NCBI GenBank assembly: GCA_002269645.1
Contig: NIVC01001449.1
Location: forward strand, 1-64,000
DNA from: Macrostomum lignano
Lineage: Eukaryota
Direction: 5' to 3'
Length of the DNA: 64,000 bases
The notes under the pieces are model-generated. The model made no database searches and was not told the origin of the DNA. It was given only the letters and a program-made list of their open reading frames with translations. Position numbers and translations under genes: made by a program. Position 1 is the first letter of the stretch. Each line of letters opens with the position of its first letter. Below are positions 10,581 to 60,363 of this stretch, one piece after another.

Positions 10581-10625
<45 letters not shown>

Positions 10626-10684
10626 CAGACAGACACACTCAAACAGACAGACACAAACAGACAGACAGACAGACACAGACAGAC

Positions 10685-10723
<39 letters not shown>

Positions 10724-15143: not shown

Positions 15144-15424
15144 CGGACATGTTCTATCTAAGGACTTCAGAAGACTCTCGCCCGAGGTCATGAAGACGGA
15201 GTTTTATTCATCGCACTCGTACATTCCAGCTTGGGTACTCGAATCTGTGACTTTCCCGAAATGATGAAGTATCTGCCCAGCCCCTGTGAGTGTGGCGGGG
15301 AGCCGCATCCTGAGCAGCGGTGCTCTGCTCCAACCCCGGCCCAGCGAATAGCTATCGAGCTCGGCTCCCTCACGTGTTTCTCCTGTCACAGGTACAGTGA
15401 CGGCAGGTTATAAATTTAATCAAG

Positions 15425-25240: not shown

Positions 25241-25249
25241 ATCCCTTCC

Positions 25250-37837: not shown

Positions 37838-38770
37838 GATTTACTGCCTGAACTTATGCTGGCAACTGCAAAGATCAAACAGAAAATTTTAAGGCTCAAA
37901 TTAAACAGTAAACTCATAATTATTAATTTCGTTGTAAATGTATGGCACAGGTATACATAGCTATATGCCTGTCTGTCTTTGATTCTTCAAAGTTCTAATT
38001 TCTTCTAAAAGTTCAAATTAGAAGTGGGTCAAATACTTGTATCTGAAAAATAATGGCTTTTAATGCATTTAATGGGTGCTGCATTTATAATCTAGTTAAT
38101 AAGTCCAACCATTTTAGGCCTCTCCTTGGCCAATGTACAATGTAGGATGTACTATTCACAATAAAGCTAAGGAGTTTTATGACCCTCTGTGAGCTGGGCT
38201 TGCAATTTGTGCTGTTGATGGAATTTAATTGTCTATCCAACCAGTCTGATAGATGATCAATGAAAAGAGGGAGGGCTTATATTGAAGCCGGCCTGAAATG
38301 TGGTGCCTTGTTTGTCTTTTTTGCTTTTTGCCTTTTTTGTGGTGCCATTGGAAATCCTATAAGCAAAATAAGCCTAATACCATCATCTTTCTCTATGGTA
38401 GAAGCAATACCATGTTGTAATTTTTCTAGCTTATCTTGCAATAGCAATCTTATTTGCTACATTGATTTGTCTGGTCTGCTTTGGCCCTATCCAACATTTA
38501 TAAAAAAAAATGCTTTCCAAAATAAGTTATAATAAGTGTAAGACCGTGGGTTGAATTGCAGTGAAGAACACAACACGTGAGGAGACCTCACTGGCTCACG
38601 CCAATATATTTAATACCAAAGTTGGGGTGGGTGTAACCACCCCAAGCACGCACACGCTGCAGCTCTAAACGCCATCCCCCAAAACAGCCAGACGTGCACA
38701 TCTAAGTGCACGCGCACCAACAAGCCAGCCTACACTACTTTCCCCCTAGAAGCAAAAGACAGTTCCAGAG

Positions 38771-41700
38771 TCAAGCAAAGCCCGCCATGTACAAGTCAGG
38801 TGGCCGCCGCTCTCTCGCCGACCGCCGCGGAACCGTGACCGGCTCGGCCGGTGCCGCCGGCTGCTCCTCGGGTGCCTCGTCTGCCTGCAGCTCGGGCCAG
38901 AAGGTCACCGTGTCGCCGTCAGGATCGGCCGCCTGCCCGGGCGGCTCAGCGGCGGTGCCGTCGTTGTCGGAGTCCGCGGCCGGCGGCTGGTGGTCTGCCG
39001 CGGCCGGAAGCTCCAGTGACGCCCGTCGCTGCACGAAGCGCTTGAGGCGGTCGTGGTGCACCACCAGCCGGCGCCTGCGGCCGGTCTCGTCCTGGATGCG
39101 GTAATTGACCTCGCCCAGGCGCCTCAGGACTCGGTACGGCCCCTTCCACTTGGCGCTCAGGCACCGCGTCTGGCCGCGCTTGACGACGGAGTTGCGCAGC
39201 ATCACGAGCTGGCCCTCTTCGAACGGCACGAACCGAGAGTCCTGGTTGGCCAGCCGGTTGCGCTCGACCTGGGCGCTCCGCAGTCGGCCGTGCACCGTGT
39301 CGAAAGCGCTCTGCAGGTTCTCCTGAGTCCGCTGCAGGAAGCCGTGATGTCCACCGTCGGCTGCCGGCCGGTCGCCGCTTATCAGCCAGCTGTCGAGATC
39401 CAGCCTCGGTGGCCAGCCGTGGAGGACTTGGTACGGACTGAGGCCGGTGGTGCTGTGCACGGAGGTGTTGTAGGCCCAGGTCACATACGGCAGCTTGCTG
39501 TCCCAATCCTGCTGGTTCTCGGCCACCGTCGTCGCCAGCATATCGCCGAGCGTCCGGTTGCCTCGCTCGACGATTCCGTTGCCACTCGGATGAAACGGCG
39601 ACGTGCGCGTCTTTTCAACGCCCAGCTGCTCGCAGAGCCGGCCGAACACCTCGCTCTCGAATTGCCGTCCCTGGTCACTGTGCAGCACCTGAGGAGCGCC
39701 GTGACGCAGAACCACCGACTTGAGCAGTGCATCCGCCACCGTCACCGCGTCGATCGCCGCCAGGGCTGCCGTCTCCATCCACTTGGAAAAGGCGTCGCAC
39801 ATGCTCAGGATGTACGCCTTGCCATCAGTCGTACGCGGAAGCGGCCCTTTGATGTCGATCTGCACCAGCTGCCACGGAGCCGTCGGCTGGCACGTCGACT
39901 GTAGCGGCGCCTTCTGCGGCTTGGTTGGACACTTCTTGGCCAGGCAGACCGCGCAGCTGGCCACCCAGTTCTCGACGTCCCGTCGCAGACCAGGCCACCA
40001 GCAGCGCTCAGACAATCTCGCTCCGGTCCTGTCGACGCCGAGGTGTCCGCTCTGATCGCACGAGTGCGCCTGCTGCAGGAAATGTGGCCGCAGGTGACCG
40101 GGAATGACTGGCCGGCCACCCACCAGCAGGACACCCGCCGAGCTCACCGAGGCCTCGTCCAGCAGCTCGCGAACCTGCGCCGCCCACGAATCGGACAGGC
40201 TGTCAATCCCTTCGGTCAGTGCCTGGAACGCCTTGCTCAGCAGCGGGTCTTGCAGTTGCTCCTCGTGCAGGCGGCTGTCGTCCCACCGAGGCTGCAGGCG
40301 CGTGCCGGCCACCCGGCTCAGCGCATCCGGCACGACGTTGTCCCTGCCAGGCCGGTACAGCAGCTCGAAGGAAAACTGCTGCAGCGTAGAAAGCCATCGC
40401 GCCAGCCGACCTTCGGGTCCTTCGTTGTCAGCAGACCTTGCAGTGGCCGGTGGTCCGAGTAGACTCTGAAGCTCGGGACACTCAGCAGGTACGTCCTGAA
40501 GTGCTTCAGACTCCAGACCAGCGCCAGCAGCTCGCGGTCGGTCGCCGAGTAGTTGCGCTCGGCCTTGTTGAGGGTGCGAGAGGCGAACGCCACAGGCAGC
40601 TCGGCGTCACCGTGCAGCTGGCTGAGCACCGCGCCGACGGCGAACTGACTGCTGTCGCAGCTGAGCACGAACTGCTTGGTAAAATCCGGCAGCCTCAGCA
40701 CCGGAGCCGTCGTCAGCAGGTCCTTCAACTCGCGGAACGCTCGCTCGCAGTCGCTGCTCCACGCGAAGTCCGTCGATTTCACGCTGACGTCGTGCAGGAC
40801 CCTCGCCGTCTGGCTGAAGCCTGGGATGAACCGACGGTAGAACCCCAGCATTCCAAGAAACCGCTTCACCTCCTCGGTCGTCGTTGGGCTGGGCATGCTG
40901 CGAATGGCATCGACCTTGCCGGGATCCGGGGCAATGCCCTGCTCGCTGATCAGGTGTCCCAGGTACAGCACCCGGCGATGGCCGAACGCGCTCTTGGCCT
41001 TGTGCAGCTTGAGTCCCGCGTCTCGCAACCGCTTAAAAACTTCCGCCAGCCTCTCTAAGTGCTCGTCGAACGTCCTGCTGAAGACAATGATGTCGTCGAT
41101 ATAAGTCAGCACGGACTCCCAGGACAGGCCGGACATCACCAGCTCCATGAGCCGCTGGAACGTCGCCGGGGCATTGCACATCCCGAAGCCCATCTTGCAG
41201 AATTGCATCAGGCCGCGCGAAAGCCGTCTTGTACCGGTCCTCCTCCGCCACCTCCACCTGGTGGTAGCCCTGCCGGCAGTCGATGGTGGAGAACCAGGAG
41301 CATCCGACAAGCGCATCCATGGCCTGCTGCAGGTGCGGCAGCGGGTACGCATCCTTGACCGTGCAGGCGTTGAGCTGCCGCCAGTCCGTGCACAGTCTGA
41401 TGTCGCCGTTCTTCTTGCGGACCACCAGCAGGTTGCTGGCCCATGGTGATGTCGACGGCTCGATGATGCCGCTTTCCAGCATCTGGCCGATCTTCTTGTC
41501 CACCTGGTCTCGCACAGACAGCGGCAGCCGGCGCTGGACCTGCCGGTGTGGCCGCGCTCCCGGCTCCAGGTCAATCTGGTGCTGCAGCAACGCCGTCGTG
41601 CCCAGGTCGTACTCGTGCCTGGCGAACAGGTCCTCGTTGCTCTCCAGTAGCTGTCGCAGCCTCGCAGCATCCGGTTCGGGCAGCTCCGCGTTTATGTTCC

Positions 41701-42478
41701 AACCGACAGGGTTCTCCTGGGCCGCCTCCTGGCGACCGTCCCCGTCTGTCATCGCGCCTTCGAACGTGCCGACCGCCTTGTTGGCGTACAGCAGCACGGG
41801 CTCCTCTGCCAGGTTGCACATTTTCACCGGGATGCGGCAGTCGTCCGAGACCGCCAGCACGCGGGCCGGCAGGACGGCAGTGGACTTCACGAAGTCCTCA
41901 GACGGCTCAAAGACTCCCTGCTCGCCGCTGGAATCCACCTTGAGCCACACCAGCTTCTCGCTGCGGGCGGGCAACTCCGTAGTTGCCGCCACCCGCGCCA
42001 CCAGGACACTCGGCACCAGGCGACAGTCTGCTCTAGCCGGCTCGCTGCTGAAAGGCACAGCTGTGCTGTCGAACCTGACGACGCCTTCTTTAATGTCAAT
42101 GGTCATCGCCTGCGACACCTCGCCGATGAAGTCCATGCCAATGATCAGGCTGGGCTGGATGCCGTCCACGACTGTGAAGCGATGGCACACGCGGATGGTC
42201 TGGCCGATCGAAACATCCGCTGCTGACAGGCCAAGGCAGCGCAGCCGGGATCCGTCGACGGCCGTCGGCAGCGCACCGATGTCGGTGGAGTCGATCTTGC
42301 ACTGCAGTCTGTCGAACAGCGACTTGTCCATCAACGAAACTTGCGCGCCGGTGTCAAGCAGAGCAGGCGCTGACACGCTGCCAAAGTGCACCTTCACGAA
42401 GACTGAAGGCGCTGATCTGAGGGCCCCTTTTGAGCGGGTCGGTGCTGGCCCCAGGCTGCCGACCCTCAGAAGTTTCCC
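38771..42478 (-). pseudogene. pol: Element C Pol (PR-RT-RH-IN), in the -1 frame relative to gag; two further frameshifts near 41215 and 40415
   Basis: LLDTGAQ; YIDD; CDSSQFAVGAVL; integrase HHCC, IDIKGP, SDQGRQF, GNGIVER, and GPY (KWKGPY). Confidence 0.9.
42420..42478 (-). promoter_or_regulatory. -1 programmed ribosomal frameshift signal (G GGA AAC + 6-nt spacer + stem-loop / pseudoknot)
   Basis: Heptamer at 42478-42472; stem GGGTCGG (42465-42459) pairs with CCGACCC (42442-42436); loop GGGGCC can pair with downstream GGCCCT (42425-42420). Confidence 0.8.
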
Positions 42479-43260
42479 TGCGGCTGACCAGTTGGTGTCG
42501 GGCACACCGCGGCGGAGTGACCCTTGCCTGAGCACCGGCTGCAGCGGCTGCCGATCGCCTTTGGGCACCGCCTAGCGATGTGACCCGGCTCGCCACAGCT
42601 GAAGCACTTACTGGGTCCCTTCTGACGCCTGTCTCTTCCGGGTTGTCCCGTTCGCACGCTGGCTGTCAGCTGCTGCATCTGCTGCTCCAGCTGGCTCAGC
42701 CGTCTGTCTTCTACCGACACCGCGGCTGATGAGGCTGTAGTTGCGTGGCTCACCAGCTCAAGCTGCGCAGCTCTGTCGACGATGGCGGCCAGCGAACACG
42801 AGTCCGCGTCCTGGTCCTTCAACAGCGCATCTCTCACGGCAGATGGCAGGAGGCGCATCAGGCGAAACTTCACGTCCTTTTCCCGAGCCGCCACGGAGTC
42901 GTCCGGGCGGGCCCGAAGGTGGAGAAGCTTCAGGCTGTAGGCGAGCTCCCTCAGCGACTCGTTGGGCTGTCGCTTTCGCTCTACAAAATCCTCCATTGCT
43001 CTGTAGCAGCTCAGACTGTTGCCGAAGCACTCGATCAGCTTCTCCTTCAGCCTTTCATAGCTGGCTGACACGTCTGCCGGCTGCTCCCAGACGAAGATTT
43101 GCGCTTCTCCTGTCACCAGCAGTCTCAGCTTCTTTGCCTTCTTCTTGTCGTCCCATTCACAGTCGTCGGCGAAGTCTTCAAACGTGCTTAGCCACATTCT
43201 CACGTTGGAGTCGCCGCTGAACTTTGGAGGCAATAAACTGGCTTGCTCTGATTTGGCCAT
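42466..43260 (-). CDS. gag: Element C Gag, 264 aa
   Basis: ATG at 43260; PPKFSGD...WLSTFE capsid motif; knuckles CFSCGEPGHIARRC and CSRCSGKGHSAAVC. Confidence 0.9.
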   Translation of the reverse strand: MAKSEQASLLPPKFSGDSNVRMWLSTFEDFADDCEWDDKKKAKKLRLLVTGEAQIFVWEQPADVSASYERLKEKLIECFGNSLSCYRAMEDFVERKRQPNESLRELAYSLKLLHLRARPDDSVAAREKDVKFRLMRLLPSAVRDALLKDQDADSCSLAAIVDRAAQLELVSHATTASSAAVSVEDRRLSQLEQQMQQLTASVRTGQPGRDRRQKGPSKCFSCGEPGHIARRCPKAIGSRCSRCSGKGHSAAVCPTPTGQPQGNF

Positions 43261-45543
43261 ACTGAGACCGCTGCCACCAGTGTAAGACCGTGGGTTGAAT
43301 TGCAGTGAAGAACACAACACGTGAGGAGACCTCACTGGCTCACGCCAATATATTTAATACCAAAGTTGGGGTGAGTGTAACCACCCCAAGCACGCACACG
43401 CTGCAGCTCTAAACGCCATCCCCCAAAACAGCCAGACGTGCACATCTAAGTGCACGCGCACCAACAAGCCAGCCTACATAAGTAAGAGTTAAAAGTGTTA
43501 ATTTTTGTATTAGGATATTCCTAGTTATCCTAGACTATTGGTAGTAATTATTATAAGTAATAGAAAAGAGACAGACCTAAATAACATATCCATATTAGAA
43601 TAAGTTTCAAAAACCCATAGACATATAACACTAATGCATAAAGAAGCTCAAATGCATGATATACAAAAACTAAATTATAAAAAAGTGCAATGAAATGCAA
43701 CACTTATAATAAGATAGTATACTATACTTAAGATAGTATACATTATTGTATAAGATAATACCCATTGAATTTATACATGACATTACAAAACATTTAAAAC
43801 ATGATAGATAACCATCTGCATTTTTGTTTCAATTTCTTGACAAGTCAAAACATAAGCATATAACTTAGAAATCAATAACTAAAATATATTTGTCACATTT
43901 TACAATTTCAATAAAAACTAAATGTAGCATTGTTAGTGGATTTCTTTTTATTTAAGTCTGCTTAGCATGCATGCTAAATGTAGCCTTATATACCATAGTC
44001 TAGAAGGTTTGAAAAAGATTTGAAAAATTATGGCATATTTTTGCCCTTGCTAACAATCCTGGTAGGTGCTAATAAACTTATAACTTTTTGTCAGCTAGCC
44101 TAGCTATATAATAAATTCATAAACTGGTAAACTCCTTAGCACAGTACAGTATATGCAGCTTTTTTAGTCCATAGATAAAATAAATAGATTATTTAGTCCA
44201 TAGATAATTCTTAATTATACCTGTTTAAGCTTTTGGCATAGTGTACAAAAGCATTGAAGTATATGACATCATTGCATAAATTACGCTGAACAATCTGCTT
44301 TTAATTTTGAGTTAATTTGCAGTCATGAAAATATTTTTGATTTTCAAACAATATACTAAAACTTTTTAGTATACTTAATCAATAATAAATGTAACTATTT
44401 TGTTTTACTAATTCTTTTCATTTTTTTCAAATAATATAGGTTTTCAAATTTATTTTTTTCTTATGGTATGGTGTAAATTATTTGCTACACCTAGGATTCA
44501 TTATTGCATTGTTTTTGTGCTTGTTAATCACAGTTTTAATTGTCATACAATTTACTAGAATGCTTAATTGGTATACTTTATTGGCATACACTTTACTAGA
44601 TAGTCTGATACTTTCCAGCATATATATAACACAATCCACAATATGGCCATCTTGTGTGTTATAAAATCTACATTTTATAATACATTTACATATATGATTT
44701 GCCACCTACTGATTGGAATGATTGTGCATTTGTGCTCTTTTTTTTCAAACCAAATGAAGGCCTGCAATTTTCTCTAATAGGATACAAATATGATAAAAAT
44801 ATAAGATATAATAAAACTATAAAACAATGATACAAAGAATCTTCTATGGCAACAACTAGGGGTCACGAGATGCAAGTTGTATGATCCCAATATTAATCAA
44901 TTTCAATTTCAATCAGTTTTAATAAATTTAATTTAATTACAAATATTTATCAAACACTTGTTTATATACATACAAATTGAGAATGCACACAAATTTGGCA
45001 ACAGAAATTTAACATGGACAAATTTGGCAAAAATCTAAGCAAATTTGGCAACATATTTTTGTAACTAAAGACAATTAAGTTAAAGTAAACTACATATAAT
45101 GAGGACTTTTTTAAAATGCTTATAAAAGTTTATAAATGTAAAATAATGGCCGCATAAGCATGTTAAAATAACCCAAAAGTGTGTTGTTAAATTGGACTAC
45201 CTATATATTTGAGAATATGGTATGTGGTATATAGGAGGCCGTTTGACACTTCTCAAAGGTTTTTGCTTATTATGAGGCCGCCCAACCTTAAATCAACATT
45301 GCTTAGAAAGGACTTTCAATACTCACAAGGATAAATAATAGATAAAACAAACTCAATTAAATGGGAAAGCTAATATACCCTGTTATATTGAAGAATACCA
45401 TTATACTAAAGGAATTATCCAAATTTATAAATTATATACAATTTTTTTCATTTATTAATTGTTGCCAAATTTGCTTTTGCCAAATTGGTCTATGACTATT
45501 GTAAATCTCTATCGCCAAATTTGTTTGTTGCTAAATTGGTTAG

Positions 45544-48500
45544 TGTCGTGTAGCTACCAGTATGTGCATGCACTTAGTACGAGTATTGATTTGTATTTGT
45601 ACTTTCCTATTATTTCTTTCTCTATTATTATCTATGCAAGCTTGGCACGTTAGGTTTGAGTTATTGCTATTTGAGTTATGGGCAAATTGTGTACGCTTAA
45701 ATTATGTCATCACTCTCGCGCACGTAGCATCGCTTTACAATATAAATACAGACATCAGAGCTTTAATAGCTCTCTCATAGTCTTCAACCACTTGAAACAA
45801 GCAGCATAGCTGATTTACCACAATGGCGACGAGTTCAAATGGACGGATTCCGGAGCTCACACAAGACTCCGACTTCGAGATTTACGCGGAGAGAATGGAG
45901 CAGTATTTCATCTGCAACAAGGTCGAGTCCACCGAGGCCAAGCGCGCTACATTTCTCACTGCCATTGGAGAGAAACACTACAAACTGCTTCGGGACCTGT
46001 GCCATCCGGACAAGCTGACCACTAAGACATTCGAGCAACTCAGAGACGTCCTTAAGAACCACTGCTCACCTGCTCCTTCCGAGATTGCTGCCAGATTCAA
46101 GTTTCAGCGCAGGATGCAGCAAGAAGGCAAATTGTTCACAGTCTTCCTGGCAGGTCTCAAGTCTGCGGTGGTGCACTGCAATTTCGGCTCAACACTGAAT
46201 GAGCGACTTCGTGATCAGCTGGTATTCGGCATGAGTAGCGATGCAATGCGCTCCAAGTTGTTGGAGAGTGCAAACAACTCCTACGAGGCGCTGACCACCC
46301 TGGCTATTTCCTTGAAGACTTCGCAGAGATCTTCAAGCGAAATGTCGCTACCGTCGTCTACACACCGAGTCACGGCTCAACCAGCTGCAACCGCACGCCC
46401 CAGCAGCAGGCAAGCCAACTCGTTGAGACCATCTGCTGGCGCGGCATCGCCCAAGACTAACCGTTGCGACAGCTGCGGAGGCTCTCATTCGCGACAGACC
46501 TGCAGGCATTGCAGCGCCAAGTGCCACGGCTGCGGCAGGCTCGGTCATCTCAAGAAGGTCTGCCATTCATCCAATGCTTCCATCAAGTTGGTAGACGAGT
46601 CTGACTCCGCCACAGAGGACAAACAGGAGGAGGAACCCATCTTCCACGTATCGAGCGCCTCCCGGTCGGCCATCATGGTGCCTCTGCAGGTGAAAAAGAT
46701 GCTGACGCAATTTGAGCTGGACACCGGATCAGCTGTCAGCTTGGCACCAAAGTCCTTCTACGACAAGCATCTCAGCCACCTACCGCTGCGCCCATCGTGG
46801 ACCAAGCGGCGTACCTACACTGACCAGGAGTTTTGCCCGCTCGGCGAGGTGACTGTCAGTATCAACTATGAGGGACAGTCCTATGCGCTGCCACTGCTCA
46901 TCGTGTCCGAAGGCAGCGCTCGGCTTCTTGGCCGCAACTGGCTGACAGCCATCCAACTGGACTGGCCCCGCTTGACTGCTCCAGTCAACGCCATAGCGAA
47001 GAACCCCAACGACATCGCTGCAGAAATAATTCAGCAGTTTCCAGACGTCTTCGCGGACAACCTGGGCAAGTACCGACTAGGGGAGGTGAAGTTGCACGTC
47101 CAGGACAGCGCCACGCCCCGTTTCTACAAGGCCCGGCCAGTACCTTACGCCCTGCGTGACAGCGTAGACAAGGAACTGCAGCGAATGGAGGCAGAGGGCG
47201 TCATCACTCCAATCACCACCTCCGACTGGGCGGCGCCGATTGTTCCGGTCATTAAGAAGGATGGCTTGGTGCGCATATGCGGAGACTACAAATGCACCTT
47301 CAACCGCGTGGCCAAGCAGGAGCACTATCCATTGCCGAGGATTGAGGACCTGTTCGCACGGCTGGGCGGCGGCTACAAGTGGAGCAAGCTCGACTTGGCC
47401 AAGGCGTTTATGCAGCTGCCGATCTCCGAGGATAGCAAGCAGTTCCTCATCGTCAACACCCAGCGAGGACTGTTTCAAGTCAACTGCTTGCCCTTCGGCA
47501 TCTGCTCGGCCAGCGCCATCTTCCAGCGCGTGCTCGACACCCTGGTGGGGCACCTCGACGGTGTTCAAGTCTACCAGGATGACATCTTGGTGACAGGCTC
47601 TACATTGGCTGCGCACAAGGCCAACCTGATGCAAGTGCTGCACAAGCTGCAAGAGGCTGGTCTGCACATCAATGTGACCAAGTGCGCCTTCTTCAGAGAT
47701 TCGATCAACTACCTGGGTCACCGGATCGACTGTCACAGTTTGCGGCCACTCGCTGACAAGATCGAGGCCGTGCAGCGTGCGCCGGCGCCGACTGATGTGA
47801 GTCAGGTGCGCTCCTACCTGGGCATGCTGACTCACTATGCAAAGTTCCTGCCCAACTTGGCGTCGGTTGTAGCACCTCTCAACCACCTGCTTACCAAGGG
47901 CGCAACTTGGAAGTGGGGCGATCCCGAGGACCAGGCCTTCCGTGCTTCAAAGCAGCTGTTGCTGGACTCTGGTGCCCTGATGCACTTCAACCCAGACTTG
48001 CCTCTTCGGCTGGAGTGCGACGCGTCAGCATACGGCATTGGCGTCATGCTCAGCCACCGCGTGAACGGCCAAGACCAAGCGATCGCGTTCGCTAGCAAGT
48101 CTCTGACCTCAGCCCAGCGCAATTACTCCCAGCTAGACAAGGAGGCGCTGGCAATCATCTACGACGTGCAGCGCTTTCACCAATTTCTTTACGGTCGCCA
48201 CTTCACCATCGTGACGGATCATCGGCCGCTCCTCGGACTGCTGGGCCCGGACAAGGAAATCCCGACGCGCGCTGCTGCCAGAATGCAGAGGTGGGCCATC
48301 CGACTATTGGGCTACCAGTACTCCATGGAGTTCCGGCCGACCGAGAAGCACGGAAACTGCGATTCCCTCTCCCGCCTGCCGCTCAAGGGCAACTTCGTCA
48401 AAGAAGCCGCGGTGCACTTGCTCACTCTAGAGGACGATTCGAGCGTCGCAGTGACTGCTGCTGCCATTGCCAAGGCAACTCAAGCCGACACGGCACTGTC

Positions 48501-50143
48501 AAAGCTGCTGTGGGCCCTGCGGTCGGGACAGGAGCTGCCAGCTAACGACTTCCCTGACTTCGCCCATCATCAAGCAGAGCTTTCAGTCGAAGCCGGTTGT
48601 GTGCTGATGGGATCTCGCGTCGTTATCCCGGACACCCTGCGCAAGTCGGTGCTGCGGGAGCTGCATCTGGCACATCCCGGTGCGAGCCGAATGAAGGCCC
48701 TCGCACAGAGCTTCGTCTGGTGGCCTGGGCTAGACAAGGAACTAGAGCAGCTCGGGAGAAAGTGCGACACCTGCAGAGCTCATCAGGCAGACCCAGCAAA
48801 GGCTCCAGTGCATCCCTGGCTGTTCCCCAACGAACCATGGAGCCGCCTACATGTCGACTTCGCCGGCCCAGTCAACGGTCGAATGTACATAGTCATTGTC
48901 GACGCCTACAGCAAATGGCCGAAGTTCGCCTCATCAGCGACACATCTGCTGGCGGGACCATCGGGCATCTCCGTGACGTATTCTGCAACTTGGGCCTGCC
49001 AAGGATTCTCGTCTCCGACAACAGCCCCCAGTTCGCCTCTCGTGAGTTCGCTGACTTCATGCATAGCAACGGGATCCGGCATGTGACTTCAGCGCCCTAC
49101 CACCCGGCCACCAACGGACAGGCCGAAAGATTCGTGCAGACGCTGAAATCCCACATCAGGAAGTCGGGTCACTCTGCGGAAGCCATGCAGCACTTCCTGT
49201 TTGCCTACCGGATCACGCCGCATTCGAGCACCGGTGCCTCACCAAGCAAACTGCTATTCGGACGTCGCCTGCGATCCCGGCTGGACCTCCTGCGACCGTC
49301 CCTGGCTGAACAGATGCGACACCGTCAGAGTGCGAGCACTGACTCGACGCCCCGCCAAGCCCGGTCCTTCGAAGTTGGTGACACCGTGCGAGTGAAGACC
49401 TTTGGCAAGGATGCCGGCTGGCGGCCCGGCCTCATCATGGCGGCGGGCAAGCGCAACTACGATGTCAAGGTCGGCGAGGGCATCGTCGTCCAGCGCCACA
49501 TCGACCAACTCCTGCCAGAGCAGCGTCAGCAGCCTCCAGCAGTACCGGCTGTCGCGGCACCCGACCGAGTATCACCATCAATCTCCAAAACGACACCGCC
49601 GTCTGAGGTGGGCCCAGACAGCTCAACTTCGGAGACTTCGGCAGCGGCCCCGACAGCTGCTCTCGCTGGACCTGCTCCTGCTCCGATCACAGAAGTCGCC
49701 GGACAGCAGGCTGGAGCAATGCACCGATATCCAGAACGCATACGGCTCGCGCCTGCCAGGTTTCAGGCGGGCAGTGATTGAACCTTGTGACACTGACTTG
49801 ACTCACAAACTAATCTTGAATCACAATGCTTTTTTTCGAGTTTTAACTCCCTATGGGGAGGAAGTGTCGTGTAGCTACCAGTATGTGCATGCACTTAGTA
49901 CGAGTATTGATTTGTATTTGTACTTTCCTATTATTTCTTTCTCTATTATTATCTACGCAAGCTTGGCACGTTAGGTTTGAGTTATTGCTATTTGAGTTAT
50001 GGGCAAATTGTGTACGCTTAAATTATGTCATCACTCTCGCGCACGTAGCATCGCTTTACAATATAAATACAGACATCAGAGCTTTAATAGCTCTCTCATA
50101 GTCTTCAACCACTTGAAACAAGCAGCATAGCTGATTTACCACA
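45544..50143 (+). mobile_element. Ty3/gypsy LTR retrotransposon D (Mag-like), 4600 bp, near intact
   Basis: 279-bp LTRs at 45544-45822 and 49865-50143 (1 difference seen); 5-bp TSD GTTAG; PBS TGGCGACGAG (45824-45833, tRNA-Ser); PPT GGGGAGGAAG. Confidence 0.96.
45823..49781 (+). CDS. gag-pol: Element D single gag-pol polyprotein, with one frameshift in integrase near 48920
   Basis: 1087-aa ORF with knuckles, LDTGSA, YQDD, CDASAYGIG and integrase HHCC; continues in another frame (KWP/EVRLIS...SDNSPQF...TNGQAER). Confidence 0.9.
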
Positions 50144-51953
50144 GTTAGCACTATAAATTGAAACTTTACTGATTTTGCTTTTGAGTGCATCTCTTATTGC
50201 TATATTCATTATACTATAGCAATAGTATAGCATTACACTATACTTCATTATACTATATATTAGAAACTGTAATAAATTGGTCAACACAGTTGACAAATAA
50301 AAGTTGCTTCTTTGGCAACACTATTTTCCATTTTCCAAAATTGATACATGCAAAGAATTGTTTAAATGCCTTATTACAAGCTTCAAAACTCAGAAAGTGG
50401 GAAATTTTATTTTAAAAATGAAGTTTTTTCACATGTCAAATGTATTTTATTAAGAGTGATACATGCCAACTATGCACACCCAATTTGGCATGCAACCATA
50501 GTCTGTTTCGTTAGAGTTACGCCAGAAATCTCTGGCATAATTCTAGACAAAAATTCTAGTCTTGGTATAAATGCTTGGCGTAAGAATTAATAGAAAAATG
50601 GACTGGCATGAAGGATAGGTATAAAAACAACTACAGGCTCATTCCATATAAGCATGGTCGTAACATGACAGGTTATTTTTACTTATAAAATGAAATCTAA
50701 TAATAGAATATACTAAACCAATATTTTAAATTGTTATAGGCGTGATTCTCCCTTCTTAATAATATCCCACCGCTATGTCACCAAGTTGTTATAGGCCCTT
50801 TGGCTCTCTATAAGGATCCCACCGCTATGTCACCAAGTTGTTATAGGCCCTTTGGCTCTCTATAAGGATCCCACCGCTATGTCACCAAGTTGTTATAGGC
50901 CCTTTGGCTCTCTATAAGGATTCCACCGCTATGTCACCAAGTTGTGGTAGTTGTTTCACCTCCTACTTTATCAATTTTAATCTCACCGCTGATACCAAGT
51001 TGTGGTAGGGCTTCAAATTCCCTGCTATCGAATTTATACTGCTGATACTAAATTCTGCCTTTAGTATTTCTAACTGTTTCTTAGAATCTCATCTATCTTC
51101 TGGGTAGCGTTCTTAGTATATTCTGGTAGCGTTCTTATGTATTAGTCTGGTAGCATCCTAGTATATGGTCTGGTAGCGTTCTTAGTATATGGCCTGAGCG
51201 GTCTTACTGGTATATGTACTTTCTCTCTCCAGTCTGGGCGTTACCGAGATTAGAGGGTCACAGCGATTACTCTTAGTACTCTCTCTGCATGAATTCCCAA
51301 TTCTGACTTTCAATACCTTTTAAAATGAGCAAAGATCTGAGAATGTTTATCGAACACGTTTTGAGCTTATAGCTAACGAACGAGTTAATTTTCCTACCTC
51401 CAACTTCGCTCCTATTTATACCATCTCGACTGTGTATATTTATAACAAACGTAGAATATTAAGAATATTTTGCAAATTAAAACAAAACATAGTTTTCGCA
51501 TGATTTTAGAAATAAGGTTTCCTAGAAAATAGTAACCGCTTCTACAACTTTCCTCCTCTTATCATGAATTTTGAATGAAAGCAATGCTACAGTGAAAAAT
51601 TTATGAGTACATTTAGCATAAAAATTGGAAGCTAAAAATAAAACATATTTAGTACAAATGCTATTAAAGAAACATGAAACATAGTACGAATGCTAGACCA
51701 GATAGTCAATATAGGTGCTCTGGGTGCTAAAGAACGAAATGCAGTGCATAGGTGAGCAACACACAATACAAATAGACTGTTAATTGTTCACAAAGTAGGC
51801 ATATCAAAGAAAATGGCATAGTAATTTGTAAAGACAATAAACATAGTAAAATTTAAAGACAATAAGCATAGTAAAGTTTAAGGACAATAAGCATAGTAAA
51901 GTTTAAAGAAACTAAGCATAGCAGAAATGTTAAAATGTCAAATTGTCAAAAGT

Positions 51954-52793
51954 TCAAAAGTCGCAATACCGGGGCAGGTCTCGATAAAATGGCCATCCGA
52001 GCTGCGAGAAGCACCATCGCAGCTCGATATTGACCAGCTGCCGCTGCGCCGGCCGGGCATCCGCTTGCAGTGTGCGCTGGAGACGTTCGGCGATCTCCTG
52101 CAGCACAGCCACAGCCTCGCGATGGCTAAAGTGCTCACGCAGAGTGCGCAGGTGAGGCCAGATCTGCGACCGCTGCGGCAGAGCCTCGTCTAGACGCAGA
52201 AAGGCGATCCTCAGAAGGTACTGTTGGATGCTGTGCCGCGGGCGTTCGACCTCGGCGCCTCTGGTCTCGATGAGCTGGCGAACAATGGCGCGATGATCCT
52301 GCGAGTCTCCCTGCGGCGGCGGGCGCGCTGGTGGCGTACCTGGGCGAGATTGGCGAGCATTCGATTGCCTTGGGCCACGAGACGGCGCTTCAACTGGGAC
52401 GGCAAGCTGTATCGATCGGCCGCCAGCGCTATCCGCTTTCATGACACAAGAACGGATTGGCGCGGCCGCTTGTCGTTCTAGCAGGGCGGCCCGCTTCCTC
52501 TCTGGCTCGTTGGACTGATTCGAGGCAGCAGCAGATGATGAAGCGCTTGATCGCTTGGTGGCGGAATCCCCGCCTGGGGGCCTTGGGCGCGTGGGCTGCC
52601 TGAGGGGAGCCTCGTTCTCCTGCTGTTCTCGGGCTCGTCGTTCTCGGTCACGCTCTTGTTGCTCGCGCTCTCGCTCTTCGCGCTCTCGCTCTTCGCGCTC
52701 TCGCTCTTCGCGCTCTCGCTCTCGTTCTTCGCTTGGATTGCCATCTTCCAAAAGGTCTTGCAGGAATTTGTCAATATCGTCGTTGTTGTCCAT
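51954..52793 (-). CDS. Intact 279-aa accessory ORF of element E (acidic N-terminus, E/R coiled coil, P/S linker, helical C-terminal domain); unknown function
   Basis: ATG at 52793 (MDNNDDIDKFLQDLLEDG); GC-rich within AT-rich flanks; TATAAAT at 52894-52888, about 95 nt upstream; no signal peptide or TM segment seen. Confidence 0.7.
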   Translation of the reverse strand: MDNNDDIDKFLQDLLEDGNPSEEREREREEREREEREREEREREQQERDRERRAREQQENEAPLRQPTRPRPPGGDSATKRSSASSSAAASNQSNEPERKRAALLERQAAAPIRSCVMKADSAGGRSIQLAVPVEAPSRGPRQSNARQSRPGTPPARPPPQGDSQDHRAIVRQLIETRGAEVERPRHSIQQYLLRIAFLRLDEALPQRSQIWPHLRTLREHFSHREAVAVLQEIAERLQRTLQADARPAQRQLVNIELRWCFSQLGWPFYRDLPRYCDF

Positions 52794-53202
52794 CTTCGAA
52801 TTACTCTGCACAGCTCTTAGTATTAATCTTCGAATCGCTCTTCGGATATGTGAAATATGGGGGCCTGCTAGCGGTCAGGGGTTTCGCATTTATAGGCTGG
52901 CGGCCGAAAAACTGGACCGCATCATTGTGTTCCACGCGGGCCTTGAGTGGGGGGTGCTTGGGTTGGCAGATTTGACACTCAGATTTTATGGATTTTCTTT
53001 AGATTTTTTATAACTTTTTATTTTTCGAGATTTTTTCTTGAGTAATATGTCATATGAAAGCTTACATTTAGCAGAATACTATGGTGTTTTCAGATTTGTT
53101 CTATGTACAACATGTCAATTTTTATAGGCAAAAAACTATTACTAATATGAGATTTTAACTAATTTACACTGGTTTCAATGGCAATTCGCTGACGTCATCA
53201 CC

Positions 53203-53679
53203 CTATTGTTCCAAATATCGTGCGTAGCGCCTTCGGGGCACGAATCCGTTCACACCTTCTCCTTGCTGAGTCACTCTATTGCCTCGTGGTCTCAGATTAT
53301 ACCTCCCTTCTGGCTGAGCTTCCTCCTCTAACTCTATTGCTCCTTCCTCTTCTGATGGCTCATCTGAGTCAGTCGCTCTCTCTGTATTCTCACTATTCAG
53401 TTCTTCATTTCCTTCGTTTTCACTCTGCGAATTATGATCTGCGAACACTCTCCATTGAATTCTGTCTTCTTCGTCTGAGCTTTCCTCCTCTAAAATTTGA
53501 ACTTCTGGATTTTTATTAACTTCTTTTCGTCTATGGCAAATTCTTTTCTTTCGCTTTGGCTGTTCCTTCTTCTTAGTTTGTACTATTGCTGGTTCTAAAT
53601 TATTATTAATTTCTTCGGATAAATTAATTTCGGATTTCGGCACTGGAGTCAGATTATTTCTATGCTTCTCTTCGAACAA
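53203..53679 (-). pseudogene. Acidic low-complexity ORF ending in RYNLRPR; probable integrase C-terminal tail left after pol deletion
   Basis: RYNLRPR-type tails are common at gypsy Pol C-termini (compare YEFRPR in element A); no ATG start. Confidence 0.45.
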
Positions 53680-54489
53680 CTTTGCAAATTCTCACAGCTT
53701 CTCCTCGAAATCTCATCTTCATTCCATCTCATCTCAACTCAACAACTTCTCGACTCAATATCTCGACTCGACCCTGACCTCTCGAAAGCTTCTCTGCTGA
53801 ACTCATGCCAGCTACAGCTCTACTGTCACGGGTCCTACAACTCTCAAATCTCCTTTCACTGTTTCAGCTTGGCCTCGTCAGTAGAATCATAGAGATTCTG
53901 TATTAATCTGCACTTTAGGCCTTACTGCCCTTCCTTTCCTGCATGGCCTGACTCTCTGAACCTTTCTTGGCTCTTCTGAAAGCGTCATCGGCCTCTTCTT
54001 TCTGCCTTTGGCTAATCTGCAATAGGTCAGTATACAACTGTCCGTGCATCATGCCAATCTCTGCAATCCAATCTCTTCGACAATTCTCTTCGCACAATTT
54101 GCACAATCTTCTCAGTATCATCTTCTCGGCAACTTCTCTGAGTAGAATAATCTTCCTTCAATGTTTTCAGTCCGAAATTGCAGTTCCCTGGCTTTCCTAT
54201 TAATTTTCTTAGTAAAACGGTCCTTTTAAGGTCAAACGGCCCTTTTAAGGTCATCTAGTTAAAACGGTCCTTTTGAGGGTTACCTCCTAAATTTTTAGCT
54301 ATTTAACGAATTTTATTTACTTTAGACGGCTTACTTGGTCGGTACATTGTAATATGCAGACGAAATACTTCTTTAAAAAAATTTTTAGGATTTTTCTAAC
54401 TTATATTCGTTTTTATATTTTGCATATACATTTCTATACATATTTACAAATAGTTTTTCAGAATCGCGCTTCTATGTACGAGTCTTCTT

Positions 54490-55062
54490 AGGGTGGCTTC
54501 TGCTGGGCGTGCCGGTTGAACCTGATTCGGCACTGGTGTCCTGCCTGTGGCCTCATAGGTCCTGGTTGGTCACAGAAGAAACAGTGACCAGGTTTTGGCT
54601 CCGGTCTGGTTCCACTGAATCGGTGTCTCTTCCAATTCGGCATTGGTCAGGTGTCTGCGGTACCGGCTTAGTCTCTAGGCTAATGTTGGTGAAAATTACA
54701 GTTAGAGTGACTAGGCACTCCATCAGCGCTTCCATGCCTCTCTTCTGTCTTTGCTCCTCACTCTCTCCGTACTCTTCAATAATCCTTTGGCGGATGTACT
54801 GATACTTGAAGTCTTCTTTCCTGTTGCTCAATCTGCGCTTGACTCTCTCTGGGATGTTCAGATTCGCGAATAACTCTTTCTTGCACTCTTCCTCACTGAG
54901 CTTCTTATTCCTACAATGCTGCTCGAAGGTGATCAACCACTTGCGAATATCTTCGCCAGGGGCGTACTTCTCGAATCTTTCTTCTCTTGTCACTTTTCCT
55001 AGACAGTCTCACAGTTGTTCTGCCAGCATGGCAATGGCATCATTAGCCTGATTCTGATTCAT
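54490..55062 (-). pseudogene. gag: Element E gag remnant
   Basis: MNQNQANDAIAMLAEQL*DCLGKVTREERFEKYAPGEDIRKWLITFEQHC (capsid-like); a frameshifted degenerate knuckle, CFFCDQPG(P), follows. Confidence 0.6.
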
Positions 55063-55181
55063 CTTCTCTTTTCAAATTATTCTTCGAAATTCTTCTGTTC
55101 TGAGAATCTTTCTGAGTATTACTACCTGTTCTAACCTTGAGAGTTCTCGCCGTTTCTCTAATCCCACTGCTGCCACCAAGT

Positions 55182-55500
55182 TGTTATAGGCGTGATTCTC
55201 CCTTCTTAATAATATCCCACCGCTATGTCACCAAGTTGTTATAGGCCCTTTGGCTCTCTATAAGGATCCCACCGCTATGTCACCAAGTTGTTATAGGCCC
55301 TTTGGCTCTCTATAAGGATCCCACCGCTATGTCACCAAGTTGTTATAGGCCCTTTGGCTCTCTATAAGGATTCCACCGCTATGTCACCAAGTTGTGGTAG
55401 TTGTTTCACCTCCTACTTTATCAATTTTAATCTCACCGCTGATACCAAGTTGTGGTAGGGCTTCAAATTCCCTGCTATCGAATTTATACTGCTGATACTA
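55182..55500 (-). repeat. Array of six LTR-end/PBS-like modules in U5 of element E (same array at 50732-51050)
   Basis: PBS-like cores at 55214-55233, 55266-55285, 55318-55337, 55370-55389, 55430-55447 and 55486-55500. In element sense, all but the last are preceded by an LTR-end mimic and ACT. Confidence 0.9.
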
Positions 55501-57068
55501 AATTCTGCCTTTAGTATTTCTAACTGTTTCTTAGAATCTCATCTATCTTCTGGGTAGCGTTCTTAGTATATTCTGGTAGCGTTCTTATGTATTAGTCTGG
55601 TAGCATCCTAGTATATGGTCTGGTAGCGTTCTTAGTATATGGCCTGAGCGGTCTTACTGGTATATGTACTTTCTCTCTCCAGTCTGGGCGTTACCGAGAT
55701 TAGAGGGTCACAGCGATTACTCTTAGTACTCTCTCTGCATGAATTCCCAATTCTGACTTTCAATACCTTTTAAAATGAGCAAAGATCTGAGAATGTTTAT
55801 CGAACACGTTTTGAGCTTATAGCTAACGAACGAGTTAATTTTCCTACCTCCAACTTCGCTCCTATTTATACCATCTCGACTGTGTATATTTATAACAAAC
55901 GTAGAATATTAAGAATATTTTGCAAATTAAAACAAAACATAGTTTTCGCATGATTTTAGAAATAAGGTTTCCTAGAAAATAGTAACCGCTTCTACAAAAT
56001 GAAAGATTATTTTGTCTAGAATATATTTATAGAGTTTCATATAGATATCATCATTAGTATAGATGCTATTAAACCTTAAATGACACTTATGGTCGTAACG
56101 ACAGGATTTTTGACATATAGAAACTAAAAGGTAAAAGTCGTATAACATTTTTCATTTTTGATATTTTGCAATACATTTTTAAAATTTGACTAAGAACATC
56201 TTTAGAAATCATACTCTTTTATTAGAATATATAAACTCAAAAGGCAACAAAGATACAAAAGAAAAGGCAGCCTTATGGTCATAACATTATGGTCGTAACA
56301 TATTTTTTTCTGTCAATTCAGTAACTTTGAGGTACTAATACATTAAAAATATAATAGATTATTTGGTCACCAATGCTTTTATCTGATGATGCAAGTACTA
56401 TACTTTTATCTATAGTTTGTTTCAACCTTCAAAAGCTTTCTATTTGTTTTTAAAAGGTACAAAATCTTAATGATGTCTTTTGCTTCGAAAAATGTCCAAA
56501 TTTTTACAAAAATGACTTTTTGCCAATTGATAACATACTAATCCAACATTTTACCATTCCTTTATTCTTAGATTGTATATATTGCATAATATAAACATTT
56601 GGTAAAAAAATAGGCTAATTAGACAATGGCAAGCAAAAATATTGACTTTTTTCTATTTTCCAAATATGTCCATCTTATATGGAATGAGCCTACAGATGAT
56701 TTTTTGGCGCATTTCCCTGACCATGTTTTAATTACTGTAACTTATTTCAAGTATTTGAATAAAACAGAGAATTTAAATAATAACACATTTTATAATTTGT
56801 AAAAAGTAAAACAAAGTTTAAAATCTAGAAATTAAGCTATAACGAAAAAACTTTTAGGTTGTTATCTTTTTGATACTTATATCTAAATATACTAAATCTC
56901 TAAGGTTTGTATGTCCATAACGCTCTAGAGAGAGCAATTCTTCACCGATTTATGTTTCTAAAGTTTTAATTTTAATATACAAAAAACATAAATAAACTTT
57001 TTTGAAATAAAAAAGTTTGTACAAACTGCCCCACGCCCCCCCCTTTTAGTCTAGGTATTATGCCTAGC

Positions 57069-60000
57069 CACACTGCTCTAGAAGGGCACCGAGGGTGAAA
57101 AAAATGTACAGAAGAAAATTTTTGCATTTTTGCACTCAGTGGACTGGCCCTTATACCTGGGTGTAATATAAAAAAATCTGCCAATTTGTTTCCAGAAAAT
57201 TGGCCTTTTCTGCTTTTTCTGCAACAGTCTGCTTTTAGTTGTCAAAAATCTGGAAATTACAAATGTTGTGCTCAATTTCTTGACTCTGGATACGTGATAA
57301 TATTTTCAAATGTAAATTCGTAAATTTAGGGAAATTGCGCAATATAAAAGTTGGCTTGAGGGTCACAAATGCTGAACATTATAATTTTGCATGCATTTGG
57401 CAATATATAGCTTGGAGCTGAGTCATAACCATAATTTGATCAATGTATACAATCAGTTTAAAGGAAAATTTGTTATTTGACTGATTGAGTACAATGACTG
57501 ATATAACAGAATACGCTTGTAGACAAATTAAAATCAATTGGACCCATAATCCACGTACAGATGTATATTTTCTACTTCTTTTTTCAACTCTTCCTACTGT
57601 TAGTGTATTTAATGCATCAGAATTTCAATTTGTTGAGAAGCCAAGTGAAGTGTACTCTAGGTGAGTCGCGTAAGTATTACACCTTTTCACGTTCAATTTT
57701 GAACAAAGTCCAGTTCTAAAAAAACTAGCGGAAATTCAATTCAGACAATTCAGACTGGGGCAACAAAACCCAGTTCAAAACATTCTGCTACGGAAGCGAG
57801 GTTTAGCCATAGACAAAATTGTCCCCAGTCCTTGATGTGAGTGCAAAATCTGTGTGATTGCACGCGAAAATTCTATTAGTCAAGGATTAGGAACAGCTAA
57901 GCATCGACTGCATCCTATCGGGCGCCCGCCGATTGATAGTTTGGACCCACTGCTGTCTGCCAATCTGGTCACCATTTGCGGACGCTGCCATTCTAAAATT
58001 AGCAGAGGAAAGAGCCACGCTTGCACTATTACACAAAGGCGTGCCAATCTGTCTGAGCAGCTCTTAATGGACAAGCATGGGGCTGAGATCCAGGCTTCAG
58101 ACATACTAAAGACAGTTGAAGCTTCTAGCGGACCCTTTGAAAGCAGGAATGTCTAGCTGGCAACTCGTGGAAGATCTTTAACAGTAAGTTTTGGGCAGCA
58201 GAAACATCAATCTTTGAATAGTAGGGAAGCGGATACCATTTCTGCAGAGCAGTTCAGCCAATTTCAGCAGGATCTAAGGCTAAGCCAGTGGCAAACTAAG
58301 CAGGCAGCGCAGAAGATACGCGAATGGCAAGGGCGCAATGCATTTGAGCCAAATCTTGAGCAAAAACTTTGAGAGATTGACATCATTCTTCAAGAGTTTT
58401 TCGAAGTTGCACAGCTTCCGCTGCAAATTAAGGGAGACCAACAAGAGCTGCGCACCATTGCGTACTGCCCAGATGTTGGTCTGCTGCTGTCTCGAATAAT
58501 GGAGAACCGCCAGATCAATCCCGCTGAGTCTGTAGTAAAGATCGGAATCGATGGAGGCGGAGGTTTTTTAAAAGTCTGCGCAAACATCAATGATGTTTCT
58601 CTTCCAGAAGCACAGGTAGAGAAACGTACAGCATCTTCTGAGCCACAAGCCAGCGGAGTTAAGAAGCTCATCTTGCTAGCCATAGTTGAAAATGTTTGTG
58701 AAAGCTATTACAACCTGAAGAAAGTTCTTGCACTTTTGCGACTTGAAGCTGTAACATTTATCTGTGCCGTAGACATGAAGTTGGCGAATTTGATCCTAGG
58801 GCTACAGGCCTGTAGCAGCACGCATCCTTGCCCATGGTGCGAGCAGCCCAAGTCAAAGTTTGTGCAGCAAAACTCGGGAGCAAACTTGCGCACACTTGGT
58901 CAGATTTGACAATTAGCAACAGAGTTCCAGCAGGCAAATGATCAAAAAAGCAGACGTCAAAGCATTTCTGCTGCATGCTTCAAAAACTGTGTTCACCAAC
59001 CTCTATTGGATGCAGATGACAGCGTTCCTGTTCTACAGCTGATCCCACCAATGGAGCTCCATCTAATGTTAGGAATCGTTAATAGGCTGTATGATGAGCT
59101 TGATTCACACTTGACGACAGACACTGGTGGCGTAGTGACTGCAGCAGCCTGGACAAGACAGCTGAACATCTGCCGTTCAAAGCAGCATGGTGGAACATTC
59201 AACGGTAATGAATGCAGCAAGCTACTTGAAGGAGTCGATATCCTTGAGCAGATCCTGACTGACTATTGTGCTTTCAGTTCAATGCCAGTTCTCCATTCTA
59301 TGTGCTGCTTCAGCAATGTAAAGCGACTGTGCTTTGGCAATGAGCTGCTGCCTGGATTTGAGCAAGCCAGTTCGGAATTTTCCAGCGCTTATATGAGCTT
59401 GGACATCAACATTAGTCCAAAGGTACATGTGCTACTAGCACATGTTCCAGAGTTTCTTCAGGCAGAAATTGAACACCAAAACCATCACATGGAGAATGGG
59501 AAGCAGCCTCGATATCGCGGCCTTGGCTTTTGGTCCGAGCAGGCGAGCGAGTCCGTCCATAGTGACTTTGGCCAGCTGTGGACAAGAGGCTTTCAGACAG
59601 CTTTAACACATCTAGAGTATCCACAATGGCTGCTGCGATGCACTATCATATACAACTTGAGACATATGTGATGAATTCTTGTGCCACCTTGGTAGCCACA
59701 TGCAATGAAAGCTTTTATATTCTTTCAATTCACCTATACTAACTTTACCTTCTAATTCTGTTAAATCAATCAATTCTGTTAAATCAATCTAATACTATTT
59801 CTTTAAAATGCTTTCTTTATTTTTTTGCATTCAGTTTAAGCAAAAGTATTAGCAAATTAATAATGATAATATACCTACTTTTTTGATTTATAGCTTTGTT
59901 TGAAATACATGTAAATGCAGAATTTTTGCAAAATGGCAGAGCCAACTTTTTGAAAGCAATAAGGCTAATATTTGCACATTTTCCTAATTTCTTGTGAATT

Positions 60001-60363
60001 ATAAGCATACATAATGAAAATATCATCAGGTATAGAATTTATTAAATTGTCTATGGCTGAAACATCCTGGCAGCTTATAGCAGTCATTAAAGAGGTCATT
60101 ACTGTGTAGTGACATTTTGATCAATGCCACATATCCAAAGAGTCAAGAAATTGAGCACAACATTTGTAATTTCCAAATTTTTGACAACTAAAAGCAGACT
60201 ATTGGCATTGCAGAAAAAGCAGAAAAGGCCAATTTTCTGGAAACAAATTGGCAGATTTTTTTATATTACACCCAGGTATAAGGGCCAGTCCACTGAGTGC
60301 AAAAATGCAAAAATTTTCTTCTGTACATTTTTTTCACCCTCGGTGCCCTTCTAGAGCAGTGTG
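57069..60363 (+). mobile_element. Chapaev-type (CMC; Transib/RAG1-related) DNA transposon, 3295 bp
   Basis: ~230-bp TIRs (57069-57296, 60128-60363) beginning CACACTG; 4-bp TSD TAGC (57065-57068, 60364-60367). Confidence 0.85.
57494..59671 (+). pseudogene. Chapaev-like DDE transposase, 726 codons in one frame with six premature stops
   Basis: CECKICVIAR; CGRC...GKSHAC; KIGIDGGGGFLK; DMKLANLILGLQACSSTHPCPWC; PPMELHLMLG; FNGNEC; PKVHVLLAHVPEF; GFWSEQASESVH. Stops at 57662, 57671, 57833, 58154, 58370 and 58907. Confidence 0.85.

Follow-up and report, generated by a model that had tools for sequence, protein, structure and literature searches.

Long terminal repeat (LTR) retrotransposons that depend on a helper come in several described forms: large retrotransposon derivatives (LARDs) and miniature retrotransposons with terminal repeats (TRIMs) are non-coding, and TR-GAG and MaLR elements keep an open reading frame (ORF) derived from gag. 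Among flatworms, the cestode TRIM ta-TRIM is reported to be expressed in stem cells (PMC4558846). In several invertebrate Ty3/Gypsy lineages an additional ORF that does not belong to the envelope type has been described downstream of pol (PMC5408684), and the plant transposons EN/SPM1, 1A and 4 are described as non-autonomous elements that retain only an accessory gene (PMC13547354). The begomovirus betasatellites are replicated by a helper and combine a conserved cis region, an A-rich stuffer and a single, separately promoted ORF whose product acts against the defence of the host (PMC6589721). The element analysed here lies at positions 50732-55996 on the minus strand of a 64-kb stretch of one Macrostomum lignano contig (NIVC01001449.1; this whole stretch is called the window), and it was compared with other LTR elements of the same window, among them those called B, C and D. 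It is a non-autonomous Ty3/Gypsy-type LTR retrotransposon of 5.27 kb, with a broken gag, no recognisable pol core and one intact ORF, ORF3.

Transposon biology has yet to explain why a replication-defective element should retain a diffusible protein under selection, since helpers and freeloaders share the product. The present element allows this question to be put in a model animal for which RNAi, transgenesis and 5'-end RNA data are available. An earlier note on this DNA had singled it out as a recently mobile, pol-less element with an intact passenger gene; that main observation is confirmed below, and the interpretation attached to it is partly supported.

The element and its lost Gag-Pol function

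The two 815-nt LTRs show 0 mismatches, for a 95% upper bound of 0.37% on their divergence, and the PBS (primer-binding site), the PPT (polypurine tract) and the 4-bp target site duplication (TSD) were all located intact, so that the recent insertion proposed earlier holds. The LTR termini are TG..CA, the TSD is ATTT at both ends, and a spacer of 3 nt separates the 5' LTR from the PBS; the presence of all these signals fits membership among non-autonomous Ty3/Gypsy elements. The first 12 nt of the PBS are identical to those of the element C PBS at 11/12 positions, and we take the matching primer to be tRNA-Leu; the window holds no tRNA gene. TATAAA is found in the LTR at positions 103, 127 and 509, AATAAA is absent from the 3' untranslated region (UTR) and LTR, and no canonical heat-shock element was found in the element.

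The interior is in a very different state from its borders. The gag remnant begins with an ATG at 55062, runs into a stop after 17 codons (55011-55009) and is then open to 54553, with a capsid N-terminal-like part at 54969-54694 and a degenerate zinc knuckle near 54583-54530 that sits in another frame than the main remnant. The stop and frameshift reported for gag in the earlier note are both there, as is the absence of a pol core. Pfam yields no gag match for the remnant; when it is aligned to the element C gag, the score is reached by 2/500 and 0/150 shuffles, and the middle of the remnant proves to be about 70 codons shorter, some 100 residues of the element C gag corresponding to some 30 here. 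None of 229 candidates was a longer gag relative. For protease, reverse transcriptase (RT), RNase H and integrase, Pfam gave no match in any of the three sense frames of 53200-55181, translated with stops replaced by X, and tblastn queries taken from these domains in the four other LTR elements of the window returned none at E<0.05. The 780 nt after gag carry 14-22 stops per sense frame. The acidic frame that follows contains the motif RYNLRPR at 53304-53284 and to the eye resembles how the integrases of elements B and D end, and on this by-eye reading it is a probable pol-end remnant; an integrase origin of the middle region does not rise above shuffles for the window's four integrase tails (306/500 and 78-91/150). 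A pol-end origin of the A-rich filler is likewise a by-eye impression that found no statistical support. We consider it established, or very nearly so, that Gag-Pol function has been lost and the cis signals (LTR, PBS and PPT) kept.

To this can be added what read contigs show of other copies. The alignments cover 51400-55400 in 4/24 runs, all 24 of which carry one organism code, and consist of contigs, which carry neither transcript starts nor strand. The decayed interior occurs on them in several sequence variants, in 4/4 runs used, and in the two largest of these runs (X1 and X2) the summed depth over 52874-54347 has a median of 291 and 206, versus 50 and 35 across ORF3; contigs identical to the window have a depth of about 14. 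Such depth is a rough hint of many copies and not a copy number. Since the decayed backbone is multi-copy, we are dealing with a non-autonomous family and not with a one-off deletion of a full-length element, an outcome which the earlier note had said would speak against its own reading. The variants and the high depth point to amplification in defective form, with no single contig spanning a whole copy, and the heavy decay between identical LTRs implies that the decay predates the insertion.

Table 1. Features of the element, in window positions.
Feature	Position	Strand	Basis
Left TSD ATTT	55997..56000	minus	sequence read
5' LTR, 815 nt, TG..CA	55182..55996	minus	pairwise LTR comparison
Tandem 22-24-bp x4 inside 5' LTR	55553-55656	minus	repeat search
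U5 extension, five tandem LTR end + PBS-like units	55182..55455	minus	repeat analysis; 3' LTR has same
PBS	55161..55178 (read 55178-55161)	minus	sequence read
Broken gag remnant	54488..55062	minus	reading frames and alignment to element C gag
A-rich decayed filler	53700..54480	minus	stop counts, read contigs
162-codon acidic open frame, probable pol-end remnant	53203..53691	minus	by-eye likeness
Candidate internal promoter	52888..52984	minus	conserved upstream block and TATAAAT 52894-52888
Intact ORF3, 279 aa	51954..52793	minus	open frame, homologues, structure prediction
U-rich 3' UTR, 45% T	51561..51953	minus	base composition
25-bp x4.2 tandem in 3' UTR	51816-51921	minus	repeat search
PPT	51547..51560	minus	sequence read
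3' LTR, same as 5' LTR	50732..51546	minus	0 mismatches
Right TSD ATTT	50728..50731	minus	sequence read

The LTRs themselves hold a feature that had gone unnoticed. In the last ~270 nt of both, five tandem units, each an LTR end followed by a PBS-like sequence, stand ahead of the true PBS. The PBS-like sequences start at 55447, 55389, 55337, 55285 and 55233 (52-bp period, 3.5 copies, 99% alike), the units are of two sequence types, and the 3' LTR copy of the array is at 50732-51005. The simplest account is that the LTR was lengthened through duplication of the LTR/PBS junction, with priming at the last site copying the older sites into the LTRs. The array folds worse than 99/100 shuffles, and a narrow literature search found no paper on tandem PBS accretion. 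An LTR that absorbed its old primer sites would be a visible record of LTR-end lengthening.

Selection on ORF3 and its protein family

ORF3 is uninterrupted and GC-rich, as the earlier note had it: a frame of 279 aa, equalled in length in 2/2000 base shuffles, with 62% G+C versus 37-45% in the remaining element, and with A at -3 and G at +4 of its start. Whether it is kept by selection was checked through a second copy type, represented by a gap-free 767-nt contig that covers most of ORF3 and has 20 differences, about 2.6% away. Among the 18 of these that are listed (40 of 260 rows of differences are listed, and 18 were assigned to the contig by their depth value), 13 are synonymous, 5 are non-synonymous and none creates a stop. 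The ratio pN/pS is 0.13-0.17, or 0.24 if both unlisted changes are non-synonymous (p 5e-5 to 2e-3), and ORF3 is therefore under purifying selection. At 2.6%, next to identical LTRs, the second type appears too distant to be an allele of this insertion; less probably, the LTRs are alike through gene conversion between them, or the two types are homeologues in this hidden tetraploid. A third ORF type shows 24 differences in 168 nt without gaps at the 3' end of ORF3. No indel falls in ORF3 among the 12 listed of 64, a listing that favours high-depth places.

By sequence comparison, ORF3 belongs to a small protein family seen only in M. lignano and in Logan contigs, without a Pfam or clear fold match. 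The first search retrieved 1 match in 7337 candidates (P0001, 35%, two loci). When the C-terminal part was run against 1.84 billion representatives, six matches were returned, five with E <1e-10; the sixth, P0006 (E 1.5e-6), is a tandem-repeat protein and was not counted as a member. No further homologue emerged when 8000 candidates were searched with a profile, and a metagenome scan gave 148 pattern matches with 0 confirmed. All named homologues are from M. lignano (gene ids Mlig016073, Mlig008906, Mlig008543 and Mlig026206), and the 1.84 billion representatives held no orthologue in other animals. Five other protein types retain the C-terminal domain, the domain types being mutually 37-59% identical (P0005 47%). 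In their annotation, P0003, P0004 and P0008 consist of nothing but this domain (90-119 aa), and two M. lignano paralogues are stand-alone domains of 118-119 aa. None of the papers in the literature searched mentions the four gene ids, nor do they or two motifs of the element occur in 5 supplements of PMC12801592, a check made on cells of up to 400 characters and on consensus sequences of a minority of the families.

P0005 is a chimeric gene model and was kept out of the alignments. Its residues 831-922 place the ORF3 C-terminal domain beside a non-LTR RT/RNase H-like sequence and a leucine-rich repeat gene. The composite is probably a merged annotation; alternatively, the domain may be common to different retroelement classes.

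The three full-length types (the window ORF, P0001 and P0007) share more than the C-terminal domain. Each has the motif EAPLRxPTRP; each has an acidic N-terminal helix (LQDLL, LKALL and IRSLM, respectively), which in ORF3 is of LxxLL type and lies at residues 4-16; and each has the basic motif KR-x(14-22)-K(R/K)AA, at residues 80-103 in ORF3. We presume that the N-terminal helix is an activation helix and the basic motif a bipartite nuclear localisation signal (NLS), and on this reading the ORF3 product is probably nuclear. In contrast, the (E/R)n coiled coil proposed in the earlier note does not stand: the E/R run (52722-52663) is encoded by a perfect 15-bp x4 tandem that every homologue lacks, and is therefore not a conserved coil. 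The maximum hydropathy over 19 residues is 0.59 in ORF3 and 0.22-0.90 in 6/6 family proteins checked, so there is no transmembrane (TM) segment in any of the six and ORF3 is therefore not env-like, the TM anchor or fusion segment of an env-like ORF3 being absent. Together with the shared N-terminal helix and basic motif, this agrees with the earlier suggestion of a non-structural product without a TM segment.

The C-terminal domain (residues ~163-279), which a predicted disordered linker joins to the rest, is modelled with confidence as five helices (AlphaFold pLDDT 85, pTM 0.80, from a 7-sequence alignment). The profile and structure search that had been proposed for this domain thus delivered a fold but no named family or fold match. 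Pfam assigns 0 families to ORF3 and three other frames and gives no meaningful match for the homologues, the best PDB match by sequence has E 0.72, Foldseek against PDB and BFVD returns 0 matches at E<=0.001, and P0007 has no usable match in the fold and family search. In the wide VIA search the best Z values were 7.8 (cobalamin cap domains), 7.6 (Gle1) and 6.9 (cullin repeat), all background for helical bundles and excluding no family. A relation to the TFIIS N-terminal/Med26/LEDGF-IBD group was suggested by Atlas at scores of 0.76-0.78, which lie in the chance range, and the structure searches did not back it; LEDGF IBD stands at rank 44 of the Foldseek ranking, with a TM-score of 0.29. ORF3 represents a further family of helical proteins, so far unclassified, and is a candidate for an anti-silencing or stem-cell factor.

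A candidate promoter and the possible role of ORF3

The TATAAAT reported upstream of ORF3 lies 95-101 nt before it, with no ATG between. Just beyond, and conserved like the TATA box, the block 52932-52906 matches the translated 5' extension of P0001 at 8/9 residues and at a matching distance from the start; it scores 44, and the highest of 58 control stretches reaches 31. The bin with this block has high contig depth, and one loose contig end starts 4 nt beyond the TATA box; judged by eye, a loose end also runs on into a homologue of the post-TATA leader. An upstream non-coding module that is conserved while ORF3 diverges fits an internal promoter, and a separate promoter for ORF3 is plausible on these sequence grounds. 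At P0001 the annotated reading frame passes through the TATA region, which points to a longer transcript there. Directly upstream of the ORF3 ATG is an AG preceded by TACTAAG, which we take to be branch-like. As 38.8% of M. lignano genes are reported to be trans-spliced (PMC5730564), splicing or spliced-leader trans-splicing may be a route to the ORF3 mRNA.

As a separate observation, the 8-mer TACTAAGA occurs at 55721, 55630, 55561, 54207 and 52815, plus the 3' LTR copies. Counted with the 3' LTR copies, the three LTR sites, one filler site and one site in the ORF3 leader account for 8/10 of its matches in the window, with 1.9 expected; the 8-mer was chosen after the fact, and two of the sites come from one tandem repeat. 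It could possibly be a binding site for the ORF3 product or a branch-point-like motif.

The explanation we favour, with a probability of roughly 45%, is that the ORF3 product is an accessory regulator which, in the nucleus, enhances or unsilences transcription of the element. Gag-Pol would be supplied in trans by an autonomous element with a Leu PBS, and a short internal TATA-driven mRNA ending in the 3' LTR would yield ORF3. The product would enter the nucleus via the conserved bipartite basic motif, its conserved helical domain would dock on element chromatin or on a host factor, and co-activators would be recruited by the acidic LxxLL-type helix, so that transcription of both element and helper would be raised or unsilenced. 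The element would then resemble a satellite, repaying the enzymes it borrows with a single regulatory gene.

Several points weigh against this explanation. The LxxLL and NLS readings were made post hoc, and P0003, P0004 and P0008 are annotated without N-terminal helix or basic motif. No match in the fold and family search points to DNA binding. The exact ORF3 sequence is missing from the protein collection, in which another gene of the window is present. The depth of ORF3 is about 1/6 of backbone depth at 85% likeness, so that most backbone copies are without a close ORF; these copies may carry diverged ORF paralogues or none. Finally, the second ORF type is not linked to a pol-less backbone and P0001-P0008 are not placed inside LTR elements, so that an autonomous parent may be where ORF3 was selected.

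These last points lead to the alternative that fares best, though we still judge it unlikely: that ORF3 was selected in an autonomous relative and only recently joined, or simply stayed in, a defective backbone, for example by template switching, so that it has had no time to decay. Extra ORF3s are common among autonomous invertebrate LTR elements, according to PMC5408684. Besides the scarcity of backbone copies with an ORF within 85% and the unlinked second ORF type, the loose contig ends show relatives branching in gag and beside the TATA box. Nevertheless, the interior from gag to tail is heavily decayed while ORF3, the promoter block and the start context are intact, and the promoter block is common to the high-depth backbone, one loose end being by eye a homologue of the post-TATA leader.

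Rather less probable is a nuclear factor like Rev or CERV that exports or stabilises unspliced element RNA, perhaps made from a spliced or trans-spliced mRNA. The presumed NLS and the folded helical domain would suit such a factor, as would the AG with what we take to be a branch-like TACTAAG. The CERV protein of Cer1 provides a precedent (PMC10309623), and the reported extent of trans-splicing in M. lignano (PMC5730564) a route. However, no sequence or fold link to CERV was seen in searches that included no dedicated test, the contigs list no splice joint to ORF3 (a weak point), and the TATA box and upstream block favour a promoter of its own.

Doubtful, too, and somewhat more so, is drive at the level of the cell, in which ORF3 would help the neoblast carrying the element to survive or divide, in the manner of the Burro1 inhibitor of apoptosis (IAP) or of a gene transduced by a defective retrovirus. 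Such drive would explain selection without cis-preference, and selection for a diffusible protein in a pol-less element seems to call for an account of this sort. Neoblasts are described as able to rebuild gonads (PMC12801592), and the Burro1 precedent is cited second-hand in PMC13465017. Against it, the family and fold searches gave no similarity to IAP, growth or apoptosis families.

Least probable is a captured host gene, one member of a Macrostomum orphan family picked up by the element, as the earlier note had allowed: the G+C contrast and the annotated M. lignano paralogues, two of them stand-alone domains, would fit, but P0001 has its upstream non-coding block in common with the element backbone, where the block is high-copy, no orthologue or other cellular homologue was found outside the family in the searches above, and the idea has no support so far.

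Returning to the nuclear regulator, we would extend it, as a speculation that we think improbable in its full form, to a retro-satellite arrangement: pol-less Macrostomum subfamilies would each carry a diverged regulator behind a conserved internal promoter, kept since the regulator unsilences satellite and helper or favours the carrier neoblast. As to the helper, the earlier note had pointed to element C. Its Leu-type PBS and 4-bp TSD were recovered; a helper role was not, its LTRs of ~200 nt having no blastn similarity to the 50732-55996 element beyond a common first 5 nt, and its pol lying in three frames. Judged from these features, element C is the kind of element that could act as helper, not the helper itself.

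Neighbouring sequences and comparison with known systems

Element C (38535-43478) is a Ty3/Gypsy element whose LTRs differ at 1 site, with TSD CTTA and the domain order protease, RT, RNase H, integrase. A minus-strand LTR element at 18652-27471 has LTRs 98.9% alike, and its pol is interrupted by a plus-strand gag-pol at ~21500-25000, apparently a nested insertion. To one side of the element, 45542-50143 is a plus-strand Ty3/Gypsy element with 281-nt LTRs 99.6% identical, a 1090-codon gag-pol and an integrase core in a separate frame; on the other side, 57069-60363 is probably a DNA transposon, having terminal inverted repeats of ~230 nt, of which 156 nt are perfectly complementary, and a 253-codon ORF (58910-59668) without Pfam match. 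Elsewhere in the window are an intronless ORF of ~490 aa at 15401-16900, with weak 7TM GPCR matches under the Pfam cut-off; an annotated 236-aa M. lignano gene at 30542-31249, in the cluster of Mlig009413 and with no Pfam match, the one of 4 window proteins looked up that is present in NCBI; and, at 1-10700, a higher-order repeat of ~2.3-2.9 kb in four copies, CT pyrimidine-rich, followed by 31-bp and 28-bp minisatellites.

No description of the element or its family was found in the literature searched, a search that left most subscription papers and bioRxiv supplements outside. The M. lignano LTR survey starts from RT, and its main text is without the terms "non-autonomous" or "ORF" (PMC12801592); the genome paper required TSDs of at least 5 bp (PMC5730564). 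With these two starting requirements, the published surveys would miss the element by design.

Compared with described systems, the element is like LARD, TRIM, ta-TRIM, TR-GAG and MaLR elements in its intact LTR, PBS and PPT, its lack of pol and its presumed dependence on a helper. It differs in having a ruined gag and in retaining an unrelated 3' ORF: the interior of a LARD or TRIM is without coding capacity, whereas here it holds an intact, selected frame of 279 aa. The bdelloid Vesta, Juno and TelKA elements, planarian Burro1 and the errantiviruses with their env likewise have an extra ORF3 downstream of pol, but they are described as having gag and pol, and their ORF3 domains are recognisable (fusion protein, GDSL, DEDDy, BIR/RING); ORF3 here matches no family, and the backbone around it is pol-less. 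CERV of the C. elegans element Cer1 is, as we propose for ORF3, a novel accessory protein that is nuclear and comes from an LTR retrotransposon of an invertebrate (PMC10309623), although it is made from a spliced mRNA of an element that encodes Gag-Pol, and exports genomic RNA. En/Spm elements with TnpA only, and the VANC anti-silencing factors, resemble the element in keeping just an accessory gene, but these are plant DNA transposons with known domains and no homology to ORF3. Extra ORF3s and non-autonomous elements are thus already known; what is new here is an unclassified, flatworm-restricted protein family under selection in a young pol-less LTR element. With the betasatellites the likeness is a functional analogy only, since these are satellites of single-stranded DNA plant viruses, unrelated in sequence and replication, and the benefit to the helper is here only proposed. 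If the retro-satellite arrangement were true, it would amount to a mutualism between two retroelement partners within the stem-cell lineage of an animal, comparable to a betasatellite and its virus.

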